From positions 1 to 29,055 of IMG/VR virus record IMGVR_UViG_2565956610_000009: DNA of 29,055 nt. One strand, 5' to 3'. The stretch comes from a virus. Taxonomy: Duplodnaviria > Heunggongvirae > Uroviricota > Caudoviricetes. A program made the translations under genes and the position numbers. The stretch's first letter is position 1; every line of letters begins with the position of its first letter. This document shows positions 12,835 to 16,862 of the stretch, in pieces. A model generated the notes under the pieces. The model saw nothing but the letters and a program-made list of their open reading frames with translations. It did not search any database and was not told where the DNA came from.

Positions 12835-13440
12835 ATGCCATCGGATGACGATTTTAACAGCCGTTTCAAACAGGAAGTAGCACGCAGACTGAAGGATTCC
12901 CTCAACCTACACCGTCAGTTAGCAGAAGAGGTTGAGCCGGAGGACGATGAAACTCCGGTTCAGTCTCCTGACGAAGCTTCACCTCAGCCAAAGGTTTCGC
13001 ACGCCCCCAAAAAAACGGCTGTCCGTATTCGCGGAATAGCCAGAAAAAGAGCTGCCGAAGCTCGCAAAATGGCTGTAGCTGCGTCTAGCAAAAGAATTCC
13101 AACTGCTACACCCTCTCAACAAGTCACCCGTACTGAGAGTAAAATCTTGACCGAGTTCACATCTGTGAAACAGGTGAATTCACTTGATACCGAGCATGAG
13201 CGCAAACAACTCAACAACAAAGATTTTGAAGCAGAAATCGCTCTAAAAAAACGATACGGGAAATGGTTCCTGATTATCCTTGCTTTCCAACTTCTGATAA
13301 TGAATGGTGTATTTATTGCCGACGGCGCAGGTAAGCTGGAATTTGAGGATTTAACACTACAGTTGTACATGGGCGGTACTTTGACAGAGGTATTCGGCCT
13401 CGTGCTGGTCGTGACAAAATACCTTTTTAAACGCAAGTAA
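12835..13440 (+). CDS. Membrane protein with charged, low-complexity N-terminal region and two C-terminal TM helices
   Basis: Starts 9 nt after the peptidase stop (operon); hydrophobic segments WFLIILAFQLLIMNGVFIA and GGTLTEVFGLVLVVT; last 24 codons are duplicated at 16791-16862. Confidence 0.65.
   Translation: MPSDDDFNSRFKQEVARRLKDSLNLHRQLAEEVEPEDDETPVQSPDEASPQPKVSHAPKKTAVRIRGIARKRAAEARKMAVAASSKRIPTATPSQQVTRTESKILTEFTSVKQVNSLDTEHERKQLNNKDFEAEIALKKRYGKWFLIILAFQLLIMNGVFIADGAGKLEFEDLTLQLYMGGTLTEVFGLVLVVTKYLFKRK
13369..13440 (+). repeat. Direct repeat copy A (72 bp, 3' end of the membrane-protein gene)
   Basis: About 92 percent identical to 16791-16862; both encode MGGTLTEVFGLVLVV(T/V)KYLFKRK plus stop. 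Confidence 0.9.
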
Positions 13441-13464
13441 CTCTCTCGGTCCAACAGTCTTTCG

Positions 13465-13486
13465 AAGGCCCTGATCAAAGGGCCTT
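13465..13486 (+). terminator. Rho-independent terminator
   Basis: Perfect 8-bp stem AAGGCCCT / AGGGCCTT with loop GATCAA, 25 bp after the stop at 13440, followed by an A/T-rich stretch. Confidence 0.55.
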
Positions 13487-13685
13487 GATAAATTAGCAGT
13501 GCGTTGAAAACAGATAGTTATTCCCATCAGTTCCAACGTAATACACATCAAAAAAATCACCATTCTTTTGCTCTAACGTCAACACCTACCCTTAAAAAAA
13601 TAATTCTCCAAGAATGAGAAAGTTATTGTGTGTATTAGATAAGATATGAGCTGACACATCTATGGCGTGGAGCCAAATTTAATAT

Positions 13686-13717
13686 GACAGTCCGCTCTGT
13701 GCCATAAGCGGACTGTC
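13686..13717 (-). terminator. Strong hairpin downstream of the minus-strand gene 13903..14601
   Basis: Perfect 10-bp stem GACAGTCCGC / GCGGACTGTC with 12-nt loop, flanked by A/T-rich sequence. Confidence 0.4.
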
Positions 13718-13902
13718 AATAAACAGATTCACTTGTAAATCTTGAAGCTATACATATTTACTTTCAATGATAAATAAAAGAACTATCCAAAAATCACTGA
13801 GAGCATATTTTAACTAACCCTCCGCTACTATTAACATAAATTTCACCCAACCATAATTAAATTGATACATATAGCAACTTACCTTGATACGAATCATCTG
13901 GG

Positions 13903-14601
13903 TTATATTTTTCCATATTTTTTTCCGTCAAATCGAATCATGCCAGGATCAAGAAAATTAATTAAATCGATTAACGCGTGCTGTATTCTGATTAGCCTTT
14001 CTTTATAAATTCCGATATCTCTTGTCATATTTATCACTTCATTGTTTAAATCTAAAAAAAATGGCTCATTGATAAAGCAATTTTCCTTTGTGAAACTGCC
14101 GTAACCTATGCAATCAAATCCAGTATCTGTTGATATCAGCATCTTTTCTGCAATAGCTCTCTGCTCTCCTATGAAAAACATAAAATACTGACCAAAGACG
14201 TCTGTTTGGATTAATGAGTTAATATTGTTCTGTAATCTAATAAACTCCCTCATTTTTTTATTTTTTTCTAGGCTAAGGTATTGAATGTCTATGCGGGCAG
14301 CTTCTGTCCATGCAAAAAACTGGGAAAAAAGAAAAACAGTATTGTTGATAACATAATCTTGTTGGCGCTTATTCCCATTATGATAAAACTCTTCAATGAA
14401 CCCCAATTCTAATATATTATAAATACGGCTTTGTAAGTCTGAAGCTGAGCGAATTAACGGTTCAATATAGTACTGATGTTTTCTCCTTACATCCAGTGAT
14501 TCATTGAGCTTGTTTATTCTATTCTGATTATAAGTAGATATAGCAATAGAGATTATAGCTATTGCACCACTAATAAAGCTTGAAATTAATGCCGTACCCA
14601 T
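13903..14601 (-). CDS. Hypothetical protein with N-terminal TM anchor, encoded in AT-rich DNA
   Basis: 232-aa ORF, ATG at 14601 with AGGA SD; N-terminal hydrophobic helix (ALISSFISGAIAIISIAIS); visibly AT-rich codon usage unlike neighbouring phage genes. Confidence 0.65.
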   Translation of the reverse strand: MGTALISSFISGAIAIISIAISTYNQNRINKLNESLDVRRKHQYYIEPLIRSASDLQSRIYNILELGFIEEFYHNGNKRQQDYVINNTVFLFSQFFAWTEAARIDIQYLSLEKNKKMREFIRLQNNINSLIQTDVFGQYFMFFIGEQRAIAEKMLISTDTGFDCIGYGSFTKENCFINEPFFLDLNNEVINMTRDIGIYKERLIRIQHALIDLINFLDPGMIRFDGKKYGKI

Positions 14602-15788
14602 CTAAAAGTCCTTTGATTCTTGCTTGGTTAACAAAATGACATAATTTTATTTAATGCCATAACAACTTAACAATATATCATAATATGATTATTATGGTGT
14701 AGCTTGTCGCATCTACGCTCCATTACAAACAGATGTAAGATATAACCTATATGTTTTAGCCAGCAAATTCGAAAGCATTCAAAGTAGTCTCATCGAACTC
14801 TCGAAACCCTATGTCTTCGGGTATAAAATATTTAAATCCATTTGCATAATATCGACTCATGTTTATTATATTCTCCCCATTCACCATTAAGATTTGACAT
14901 TATTTTCAACAATCGGTTATTGCAAGATTGAAATATATTTTTACTTGACACAATATTCCATGTAGCCCAGCGATTCGACTTACCCCCAACTATACGGACA
15001 ATCTAAATTAAATCGATGATTTTTTGATACATTCTCCTCTCTCCATTACTTTATGTTTTTGTTCCCCAAAAATACCTTGCTCTCTAAAAAATAATTGTTC
15101 TTTAAGTTCAAAATCGAGATCTACATGAGCGTTAGATACAAAGCTAATATGTTGAAATGTCTTTCCCCCCCCATAACGGCATTGTTATCTAAACTATGTT
15201 ACACAAATATAATATTACCCTTTCAACGTAATCCAAGAATAAGATTAATGCCATTATATATATCATAAATATGATATTTTGTATATTTTTATCATTTAGC
15301 CTTGATTGTACTAGGTGTACTCTCAACGAAGTAGGGAAAGTCTGTTCCTCGCTCACAGCTGCCCTTCAGTAAGCGAAAAAATGCCTACTCGGTGCCATAT
15401 ACAGCCATTGTTATTAACAGCAGGGAATAATTCAAAACTGAAATTAAATATCTACCTTTTACAGTAGAAATAGTTCCTCCAGGACACTATCCATTGCCGG
15501 GCACAATCACTCGGGGTATAACGATATAAAATATGTTCATGATAGTGCAGGTTCGTATATTAAGTTCAGCAGCGAAAACATGCCTTACAGGTTTCCGGTT
15601 TTGGGAGCGTCGTTACAGGATCCTGCGCATACCGTTCCCATCTGTTGAATTAAAGGTTTCACAGCCTTTGCCGATATCACCTTTTACCTTACCTGTGATG
15701 CGTTCAGTGCTCAGCGTTGTTTACTGTAGCTCTCGGGACTGATTACAGACCGCGTCTTAAAAACCAATCCTTACTCTAAAGGGAATTC

Positions 15789-16712
15789 ATGAGATTAAAA
15801 TACTCAGTACTCTTACTCGCCATTGCCCTTACAGGCTGTGATAACAAAAAAGATGAGATCGGTTGTTCTTCGGAAATAACCCAGTCAGCTCTCATGGATT
15901 TATTAAAAAAATCTGCTTATGAAGGACTCTCTGAACAGGTCGATAAATACCCTGATGTCACTAATCAGACCAAACGAAGCACACTGGACAAGATCAAACT
16001 AGCCATCTCTGAGATCTCCACAACATCAAGTGACACGGGCAGCACAATGAAAACTTGTGAAGGGACCGTGACGATGACTCTATCTGCGAACGAGTACGTC
16101 CAGCTTTCAGATGCTTACAGAAAGAATTTTAATCGTAATCTCGATAAGCAAATGGAAAGCCTGTTTTTGGAGAACAACGCAAACGCCTTTTCAAAACGTA
16201 TCACCTACACCGTGCAGGCGACCGACGATCAGAAAAACGTTTTTGTAAAAACCTCTACTGATAATCCGATATCAGTGGGCGCCGCTTTACTGACATCGCT
16301 TTCCATTATCACCCCGATCGTTGAGCAGCAGAAAATCCAGCAGGCTAAGGATGCCCAACAGAGTCAAATTGAAGCGGAACAACAGGTGCAACTCAGGGCG
16401 CAAGAACAGGCTAAGTATGAGGCGGAGAAGCAAATAGAGAGACAGGCACAACTTCAGCCGCAAAAAGCTGACAACCTTGATCAGTCCCGAATGGCATTTG
16501 CGAATGCCGACTCTGATTTGAGTACCGTCTGGAGCAAGTTAACCCCGGCGAAGAAAAAAGATTTGCTGCCTTCTCAGCGTCAGTGGATCAAAACTAAGGA
16601 TGCTATGTGCGGTAAAGTTTCAATGCAGGGAACAGATGCTGAAGTCAAGAAAATGGTCGACTGCCAGACGCAAATGACCCTTTCAAGAATCGCTTTCCTC
16701 AGAAACCAATAA
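15789..16712 (+). CDS. Lipoprotein with Gln-rich coiled-coil region and C-terminal DUF1311/LprI-like two-Cys motif
   Basis: Signal peptide with lipobox LTGC; central QQKIQQAKDAQQSQIEAEQQVQLRAQEQAKYEAEKQ repeat region; C-terminal QRQWIKTKDAMC...VDCQ resembles the DUF1311 pattern. Confidence 0.75.
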   Translation: MRLKYSVLLLAIALTGCDNKKDEIGCSSEITQSALMDLLKKSAYEGLSEQVDKYPDVTNQTKRSTLDKIKLAISEISTTSSDTGSTMKTCEGTVTMTLSANEYVQLSDAYRKNFNRNLDKQMESLFLENNANAFSKRITYTVQATDDQKNVFVKTSTDNPISVGAALLTSLSIITPIVEQQKIQQAKDAQQSQIEAEQQVQLRAQEQAKYEAEKQIERQAQLQPQKADNLDQSRMAFANADSDLSTVWSKLTPAKKKDLLPSQRQWIKTKDAMCGKVSMQGTDAEVKKMVDCQTQMTLSRIAFLRNQ

Positions 16713-16726
16713 CTGAAGTCTCCTTC

Positions 16727-16760
16727 AAGCTGGCGCCAGGTGTTAACCTGGTGCCAGCTT
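16727..16760 (+). terminator. Hairpin terminator after the lipoprotein gene
   Basis: AAGCTGGCGCCAGG / CCTGGTGCCAGCTT 14-bp stem (one mismatch) with loop TGTTAA, 15 bp after the stop. Confidence 0.5.
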
Positions 16761-16790
16761 AGTCATCAAGTGCATATGTAACTGTTTTAT

Positions 16791-16862
16791 ATGGGCGGTA
16801 CTTTGACAGAGGTATTCGGTCTCGTGCTGGTCGTGGTCAAATACCTTTTTAAGCGCAAATAG
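16791..16862 (+). repeat. Direct repeat copy B (72-bp remnant of a membrane-protein gene 3' end)
   Basis: ATG plus 22 codons plus TAG nearly identical to 13369-13440; reading frame closed by TAA 12 nt upstream, so it is a remnant and not an intact gene. Confidence 0.9.

Follow-up and report, generated by a model that had tools for sequence, protein, structure and literature searches.

The window analysed here is the whole of a 29,055-nucleotide (nt) stretch from a virus of the class Caudoviricetes (IMG/VR record IMGVR_UViG_2565956610_000009). Within it, the segment at 13369-16862 is bracketed by 72-bp direct repeats and encodes a 232-amino acid (aa) cargo protein and an LprI lipoprotein. The locus is an accessory hotspot within the nin region of a lambdoid prophage from sequence type 131 (ST131) of Escherichia coli. 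It most probably consists of two nested layers, a foreign cassette of phage P2 type in a swap-prone slot and, around it, a repeat-bracketed segment that can be deleted. The inner layer (about 13621-15375) would be a cassette of a kind whose first deposited example came from the Z/fun slot of P2-like phages, with a left element that doubles as a terminator, an intact 232-aa gene, a dead nuclease-like gene of about 150 aa and a truncated right repeat. Its cargo would be swapped when related phages reside in or infect the same cell, by recombination in the conserved flanks or in the repeat elements. The outer layer would comprise the cassette and LprI. On one side of these is the 3' end of a membrane-protein gene, which is intact, and on the other an old remnant of that end, 72 bp long and non-coding. 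This remnant would have become fixed downstream of LprI across the prophage group, and the two copies would serve as substrates for homologous recombination.

The ST131 genomes EC958 and JJ1886 are 100% identical to the window over 12300-17800, and 403 of 5,426 complete E. coli genomes carry at least 80% of this interval; the locus as a whole was matched in about 403-416 complete genomes. In the RefSeq annotation of EC958, the lambdoid prophage is integrated beside the tRNA-Leu/Cys/Gly-pgsA-uvrC locus (tRNA, transfer RNA). On its left side are the head, lysis, Q and nin-type genes, and on its right side those for replication, immunity and the integrase; the repeat-bracketed segment falls between the nin-type genes and the replication module. 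The only published coordinates for the numbered EC958 prophages place Phi4 elsewhere. Relatives were compared through partial matches in other E. coli genomes and through 35 IMG/VR loci with an LprI gene (individual loci are given by L numbers). Close relatives are designated group 1, and group 2 is a second set of prophages in which LprI is about 85% identical.

By its homology, the cargo of the window is a known P2-type Z-region cassette, here in a lambdoid slot. Positions 13631-15359 align at 86% identity over 1,741 bp with GenBank AJ512683.1, which is titled 'Bacteriophage P2-EC58 proviral Z-region, ORF1' (ORF, open reading frame). That record annotates inverted repeats on the left and on the right, promoter signals and a minus-strand ORF1, whose product is a 232-aa 'putitive lysogenic protein'. 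The corresponding gene of the window (13903-14601, minus strand; WP_000536231.1, 'lysogenic protein'; PHROG 5606, unknown function) encodes a protein identical to P2-EC58 ORF1 at 213 of 232 residues (92%), and its name traces to the same GenBank record. The cassette is also present, at 74% identity, in an unrelated enterobacterial chromosomal island (L017-19). Its guanine-plus-cytosine (GC) content is 32.4% (13621-15375). The preliminary description of this DNA, made from the window alone, took the whole bracketed segment to be AT-rich. This holds for 13441-15375 (32-39% GC), whereas the LprI leader (41.9%), LprI itself (44.8%) and the region of the remnant (46.7%) are backbone-like and match the flanks (46.5% for the ImmA and membrane-protein genes, 46.2% for the ORF6N gene).

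Both borders of the cassette have counterparts in the Z region. The left border is an element at 13621-13718 that is homologous to the left inverted repeat of P2 and P2-EC58. Positions 13631-13718 align with the annotated left repeat at 3-115 of AJ512683, and a core at 13680-13713 is 94% identical. The element includes a perfect hairpin with a 12-bp stem (13685-13718) that scores as an intrinsic terminator of the 232-aa gene, which is on the minus strand. At the right border is a truncated, degenerate counterpart of the right inverted repeat (15327-15375); its first ~32 nt are common to P2-EC58, and the cores TCGCTCACAGCTGCCCTTCAG and TCGCTCAAAGCAGACTGTCAG are identical at 16 of 21 positions by eye. 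Equivalent left and right repeats surround Z/fun in reference phage P2. No homology of the 232-aa protein to P2 Z or Fun was identified.

Elements resembling the left repeat at 74-84% identity occur in about 300 E. coli genomes and in 72 phage records, which include P2-like, Yersinia P2-like and Stx-converting phages. Sites include L069 1501-1604, L070 1501-1569, P2 NC_070905 15364-15446 and, in Stx1a and Stx2c phages, about position 3750. Where examined, the element lies at the edge of accessory genes. Its hosts comprise lambdoid prophages (the window, L003, L033 and L065), a P2-like prophage (L070) and a prophage region with yfdR and DUF551 genes (L069).

Comparison of sister prophages identifies the slot as a genuine hotspot for prophage defence genes. 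Between the membrane-gene flank, or the nin213 gene, and the LprI leader there are at least six different fillings. These include a 134-aa gene with a T5orf172/MUG113 GIY-YIG nuclease (L002 and L036), HEC-08 (1.1e-173) with an integrase fragment and two other genes (L003), six genes including PD-T4-3 (6.9e-138) and an HNH protein (L004, L033 and L035), and a GmrSD_N/NsnA-like protein (NsnA/PD-T4-2_A/GmrSD_N, 4.6e-41) with a partner gene (L005 and L038). In L065, a PD-T4-3-like cargo (8083-9123) abuts the last 40 codons of LprI. The leader and the greater part of LprI were replaced by this cargo, so even the right anchor can be overwritten.

The breakpoints on both sides are sharp. On the left they fall 9 bp past the membrane-gene stop (L002, about 13449) or at 13718 (L003 and L065), and those of the sister cargos on the right fall at 15346-15388, upstream of LprI. 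The first part of the left anchor is the native 3' flank of the membrane-protein gene (13441-13620, plus strand), which has a hairpin, GAAGGCCCTG..AAGGGCCTT, at 13465-13487. This flank is common to L003 and L065 and, in L005, sits after both remnants. The suggestion that the locus is a cargo hotspot was thus correct, in that related prophages carry different genes here. The 72-bp repeats had been proposed as the boundaries of cargo exchange, and in this the preliminary description was mistaken: the slot runs from about 13449 or 13719 to about 15346-15388. In some ST131 genomes (NZ_CP195410.1 and NZ_CP107122.1) an IS1 insertion is located inside the segment, in the equivalent of ~13441-15800; the slot therefore also accumulates insertion sequences.

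The left copy of the direct repeat (13369-13440, plus strand) comprises the last 24 codons of the membrane-protein gene (12835-13440, plus strand; 201 aa, WP_001138663.1, PHROG 5346), and the right copy (16791-16862, plus strand) is a non-coding remnant of the same 3' end. The two are identical at 66 of 72 positions (91.7%), including an unbroken stretch of 29 nt (13369-13397); the value of about 92% reported earlier stands, and did not prove far lower on alignment. Gapless extension gives 81 nt at 89% identity (13359-13439 and 16781-16861) with a spacing of 3,422 bp. The second-longest direct repeat in the window is only 28 nt, and by our own estimate far fewer than 1e-20 pairs with 66/72 matches would be expected by chance in 29 kb. 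As previously described, the right copy is closed in frame and lies beside the antirepressor gene: an in-frame stop is located five codons upstream of its ATG, and the stop codon of the ORF6N antirepressor gene is 24 bp away. Positions 13391-13422 of the left copy match exactly a spacer from a type I-E array of clustered regularly interspaced short palindromic repeats (CRISPR) in other E. coli, with AAG as protospacer-adjacent motif (PAM); the right copy has 4 mismatches to this spacer.

Every remnant, including the left-hand ones in L005 and L038, begins at one same nucleotide. Remnants of the L004 type have a 1-nt deletion that shifts the frame, and the left-hand remnant of L005 and L038 has a stop at codon 5. 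Given the shared start nucleotide and the untranslatable state of several copies, we interpret the remnant as one inherited non-coding scar and not as a mini-gene. No integrase, transposase or resolvase was found among the annotated genes within or next to 13369-16862, and the prophage integrase lies about 11 kb from the segment, at the prophage end. The 72-bp repeats were rejected as attL and attR sites of an integrative element because there is no recombinase gene in or beside the segment; the single-repeat empty site of E. coli GPEC172, considered below, is equally expected from att sites or from homologous recombination. Also rejected was insertion of a transposon or insertion sequence with target-site duplication, given repeats of 72-81 nt that are 89-92% identical and the lack of a transposase. 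Terminal inverted repeats are absent from the repeat borders at 13441 and 16790, and none in the window is significant.

Two divergent genes lie between the repeats, as had been stated: the 232-aa gene on the minus strand and, on the plus strand, the LprI lipoprotein gene (15789-16712; 307 aa, lipobox LTGC, C-terminal LprI/DUF1311 domain, PHROG 5094). The 1,187 bp between them hold no long ORF. To call this interval non-coding was only partly accurate, since it contains a pseudogene of ~415 bp and its last ~440 bp are the conserved LprI leader. Both genes had also been termed non-phage-like. The 232-aa gene is indeed foreign, whereas LprI is a conserved prophage moron and part of the backbone. 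The leader or promoter region of LprI (15376-15788, plus strand), which forms the right anchor of the slot, is nearly invariant in group 1. Identity across that group is 92-100% for the leader, for LprI, for a terminator hairpin and for the 72-bp remnant. The remnant is kept downstream of LprI in all group 1 loci, even where the membrane-protein gene is absent, and LprI, leader and remnant persist together in loci without ImmA and the membrane-protein gene (L004, L005, L033, L035 and L038). Thus, the segment is nested and composite, and the single inserted module envisaged in the preliminary description does not account for it.

That description also predicted an empty site in which the membrane-protein gene abuts the antirepressor gene, and such a site is present in E. 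coli GPEC172. The search used a chimeric query joining the membrane-protein gene to ORF6N, and GPEC172 is the sole complete genome that matches it end to end, in one 1,467-bp piece at 99.5%. It otherwise carries the same prophage, with both flanks 99.7-99.8% identical to the ST131 prophage. One repeat copy and the interval are absent, a difference of exactly 3,422 bp. The junction is of left type through 13397 and of right type at all six later mismatches, which places the exchange inside the 29-nt identical stretch at 13369-13397. The reading frame is kept, and the hybrid membrane protein that results differs by a single T-to-V change. This exact protein is encoded on 23 contigs, compared with at least 1,000 for the intact allele, and a 40-mer across the recombinant junction is absent from IMG/VR and JGI metagenomes. 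We favour the reading that the GPEC172 allele arose as a 3,422-bp deletion by homologous recombination between the repeats, because LprI and the remnant are widespread and old and because the GPEC172 flanks are so similar to those of the ST131 prophage.

The opposite direction is unlikely. In that case the whole 3.4 kb would have entered an ancestral membrane gene-ORF6N arrangement in one Campbell-type crossover between the phage copy of the 72-bp sequence and a diverged one on a circular donor, which would generate the two direct repeats, and GPEC172 would be the surviving empty site. Consistent with such an event are the direct repeats that flank the segment, the existence of an exact empty site, and the left-type 5' and right-type 3' parts of the GPEC172 junction, which are those predicted for the recipient if the crossover fell within 13369-13397. 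The right copies also begin at one fixed nucleotide, like a donor junction. However, many relatives (L004, L033-L035 and L037) have LprI, leader and remnant although both the left copy and the membrane-protein gene are missing, and L005 and L038 carry only remnants on both sides. The GC content of LprI is backbone-like, compared with 32% in the cassette, and the cassette alone occurs elsewhere as a discrete unit. Nor is GPEC172 basal, given its near-identity to the ST131 prophage in both flanks.

For the exchange of cargo in the inner layer, we prefer ordinary homologous recombination in similar flanks, which would be sufficient. Improbable, in our view, is movement by dedicated site-specific or hairpin-targeted recombination at the inverted-repeat elements, with the slot as an integron-like acceptor shared by P2-like, lambdoid and other prophages. 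A 2004 title by Nilsson, Karlsson and Haggard-Ljungquist (Mol Biol Evol 21:1-13) reportedly conveys the idea of repeat-directed recombination for the P2 Z-region. The left element flanks Z/fun in P2 and ORF1 in P2-EC58 and recurs at the edges of accessory genes in unrelated prophages, and the cassette is homologous to P2-EC58 from a point within the left repeat to a point within the right one. It is because of this recurrence and these end points that we retain the idea at all. Cargo breakpoints in sister loci fall at repeat elements too, but L002 diverges 9 bp past the membrane-gene stop and the L065 cargo extends across the right anchor into LprI, most of which it covers. The slot has no associated recombinase, the repeats of the window are not significantly complementary, flanks of high identity suffice for homologous exchange, and the hairpin is adequately explained as a terminator. 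A broader version is more doubtful still, namely that the repeats anchor a cross-family, integron-like exchange that shuttles single-gene defence cassettes among P2-like, lambdoid and other prophages and islands, with the ST131 prophage as one acceptor and the 232-aa protein as an anti-phage effector spread in this way.

The 232-aa protein has an N-terminal hydrophobic or transmembrane anchor (residues 1-24) followed by a predicted, all-helical cytoplasmic domain, and its structure model is confident, with a predicted local distance difference test (pLDDT) score of 85.5. The family comprises at least 290 proteins, some of which are named 'lysogenic protein' by NCBI. Twenty-eight residues are invariant, many of them polar (D55, Q57, S58, R59, N62, R79, E100, R103, E146-R148 and D218), which points to a predicted, defined active or binding surface. 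In the settings examined, homologues are single genes. One adjoins a tail-fibre assembly gene in the rearranged remnant of a P2-like prophage, and another directly follows the integrase of a P2-like prophage that also holds an AAA_15/DUF4435 pair. Others are located beside a SIR2-HerA system and in other islands. Because of these contexts and the defence content of the slot in sister prophages, an anti-phage or exclusion role is the likeliest one. The protein may thus be put forward, at slightly less than even probability, as a candidate prophage-expressed, membrane-bound anti-phage or exclusion factor. We found no mention of WP_000536231 and no characterisation of P2-EC58 ORF1 in the published literature.

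A role as a DRT or reverse-transcriptase-associated transmembrane effector was rejected, as the match to the RTasTM profile is weak and there is no adjacent reverse-transcriptase gene. No reverse transcriptase was identified in the window or in seven distinct contexts of 232-aa homologues. The other variable region of P2-EC58 encodes a reverse transcriptase, Abi-P2 (orf544; PMC9508834). That enzyme is of interest given the RTasTM match; no physical linkage was seen.

Several observations weigh against the nested arrangement and the defence role set out above. A slot-empty variant, with the left anchor joined to the right anchor, was not found in any of 5,426 genomes, so replacement of cargo is deduced by comparison. 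The GPEC172 junction fits Campbell-type insertion into an ancestral empty site equally well, and the choice of deletion is one of parsimony. Compared with the reverse-complemented right repeat, the left repeat of the window has a score that 170 of 300 shuffles equal or exceed, in contrast to none of 300 for the P2-EC58 repeats, which have a core complementary at 19 of 22 positions. The window repeats are thus not significantly complementary; the right terminus is therefore truncated, and the cassette is repeat-bounded only in part. The 232-aa protein belongs to no Pfam or NCBIfam family, and its only PADLOC match is a weak one to RTasTM (E = 1.8e-5, 22.4 bits). Fold searches with its model returned generic helical bundles and no informative relatives. 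Its proposed part in defence derives from its location and from the contexts of its homologues.

A function for the right repeat copy is very unlikely. It was suggested either that this copy encodes a 23-aa hydrophobic peptide (MGGTLTEVFGLVLVVVKYLFKRK) or that it acts, within the 3' untranslated region of ORF6N, as an antisense RNA to the 3' end of the membrane-gene mRNA. The window copy begins with ATG and remains open for 23 codons, and it is retained downstream of LprI in all group 1 loci. Located between the ORF6N stop and the shared terminator hairpin, it would, as read from the sequence, be antisense to the left copy. Against a peptide, there is no Shine-Dalgarno sequence ahead of the ATG, and the 1-nt deletion in the L004 type and the stop at codon 5 in the left-hand L005 copy indicate that coding is not conserved. 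Against an antisense role, the remnant persists in prophages without any membrane-protein gene to regulate. The more specific proposal of a gene for a small membrane peptide of the type I toxin kind was rejected because the ORF is not conserved across relatives.

Upstream of the 232-aa gene is a pseudogene of about 415 bp (~14756-15170, minus strand) that belongs to a family of ~150-aa proteins with a PD-(D/E)XK-like FD..ECK motif. It was found by alignment with the copy in the island and by three-frame translation. The start codon is absent, there are at least three frameshifts, and the FD..ECK motif has D-to-N and E-to-G changes. The copy in P2-EC58 is likewise dead, and the cassette therefore spread in a decayed state; that of L017 (6389-6840) is nearly intact, with one frameshift. 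Reconstruction from a less-decayed copy gave at least 1,551 homologues of about 150 aa. The family has no sequence match in Pfam, PADLOC or the PDB, and the FD..ECK motif suggests a putative PD-(D/E)XK nuclease. An earlier candidate, a reverse-transcriptase pseudogene at this position, was rejected once the decayed gene had been placed in the ~150-aa family. Members of the family, each a single gene, are located next to a gene for a tyrosine recombinase and within an island of the Cap4-nuclease/UvrD type in E. coli TA054, and the array around a member in L028 may be an integron cassette array.

That the 232-aa and ~150-aa genes form, or formed, a two-gene defence system, possibly related to DRT, is most improbable and largely refuted: they adjoin in the window, P2-EC58 and L017-19, and there is the weak RTasTM match, but the ~150-aa gene is a pseudogene in the first two and frameshifted in L017, its intact homologues never adjoin a 232-aa homologue (four contexts), 232-aa homologues occur without it in four other contexts, and no context has a reverse transcriptase.

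Several further features of the LprI region were examined. The proximal ~225 bp of the leader is also kept in group 2. A structured 5' untranslated region or cis-regulatory RNA in the leader was rejected for lack of covariation and of an Rfam match: 0 of 27 predicted pairs have compensatory changes among 16 sequences, and an Rfam search of 13300-17000 gave nothing better than E = 0.24. A small conserved ORF in the leader is also unlikely because group 2 sequences have 1-nt indels. Between the convergent LprI and ORF6N genes is a hairpin, AAGCTGGCGCCAGG..CCTGGTGCCAGCTT (16727-16761), which is likely to be a bidirectional terminator. The ORF6N-domain antirepressor gene that forms the right flank occupies 16887-17723 on the minus strand; the RefSeq coding sequence starts later, at window position 17675.

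In group 2, LprI lies next to a DUF1367 gene and there is no remnant. The variable defence cargo is on the other side of LprI than in the group of the window; in L045 (10368-12473) a PARIS-like pair follows LprI (AriA 1.6e-43, AriB 3e-7). Also conserved in group 2, and absent from the window, is a palindrome, TACTGTATGCATGTACAGTA, about 430 bp upstream of LprI (L045 about 8555-8580), which we take to resemble the consensus of the SOS (LexA) box. The first 32 nt of LprI (15789-15820) match type I-E CRISPR spacers of many E. coli with 0 mismatches and an ATG PAM; this site is the commonest short match among 582 matching records.

Upstream of the membrane-protein gene is an ImmA/IrrE gene (12337-12825). 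The two genes (12337-13440) constitute an accessory module that is jointly present or jointly absent among group 1 prophages, and both are missing from L004, L033 and L035 and from L005 and L038. The ImmA/IrrE metallopeptidase matches the PADLOC profile capP (2.4e-25) and several RmrA profiles. Together with the 201-aa membrane protein it may form a peptidase/membrane-protein pair with a toxin/antitoxin or defence function. No obvious gene for a helix-turn-helix partner was identified upstream of the module. Positions 12545-12576 in ImmA match a 32-nt type I-E CRISPR spacer of other E. coli with 0 mismatches and an ATG PAM, and positions 2663-2694 in the portal gene match a 32-nt E. coli type I-E spacer with 3 mismatches. 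Spacers in type I-E arrays of other E. coli thus match the prophage at four sites, and these matches have functional PAMs.

Prophage defence hotspots are already known, and the cassette itself was deposited as AJ512683.1, with an associated paper in 2004. New here is the location of this known cassette in a lambdoid nin slot, and we did not find the slot described in the hotspot literature consulted. ST131 is a pandemic clone, and with roughly 400 of 5,426 complete genomes involved the slot is among the most widely sampled of prophage hotspots. As a defined and always-occupied position in which hypothetical genes share space with PD-T4-3, HEC-08 and GmrSD-like genes, it is a place to seek defence genes. 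The 232-aa family, with no Pfam domain and no structural relatives, is a tractable candidate for a single-gene defence or exclusion factor. Because the cassette occurs in the P2-like Z/fun slot, the lambdoid nin slot and a chromosomal island, with homology that ends in the same repeat elements, movement between phages, a question two decades old, becomes testable. The practical point of the 72-bp repeat is that the segment of LprI plus cassette would be unstable, and a natural deletion allele appears to be in circulation. The main interest lies in the sharing of a cassette across phage families and in an uncharacterised 232-aa family in a clinically dominant clone.

Hotspots of this kind are established for the prophages P2 and P4 (Rousset et al., 2022, PMC9122126; Vassallo et al., 2022, PMC9519451), and the latter study mentions some defence systems in lambdoid phages. 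Common to those hotspots and the present slot are conserved flanking genes, short AT-rich variable content, and a mixture of hypothetical genes and validated defence families, here PD-T4-3, PD-T4-2_A-like and PARIS-like. The type of prophage (lambdoid, nin region) and the flanking genes differ, and the cargo of the window is not among the recognised defence systems. The closest likeness is to the P2-EC58 Z-region, which has the same cassette, with the minus-strand ORF1 homologue, the decayed upstream gene, the left repeat and the terminator hairpin in it, and the beginning of the right repeat. There the cassette is located between the tail genes G and FI, whereas in the window it occupies the lambdoid nin region between the membrane-protein and LprI genes. 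Z/Fun, the cargo of P2 itself, has no relation to the 232-aa protein.

Deletion between short direct repeats is an ordinary mechanism, and here, as elsewhere, the crossover lies inside the longest uninterrupted identity (29 nt). The GPEC172 case is of note because an intact, in-frame gene is regenerated. Lambdoid phages carry morons, independent transcription units with their own terminators that are located between backbone genes, and their genomes are mosaics with boundaries between modules. The 232-aa gene with its left-repeat hairpin and LprI with the 16727-16761 hairpin are similar to such units, as is the placement of a lipoprotein moron in the nin region. Short conserved sequences at the module junctions are a further likeness. 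The 72-bp junction differs from those boundaries in that it is a duplicated gene fragment that recombines, and not a mere linker.

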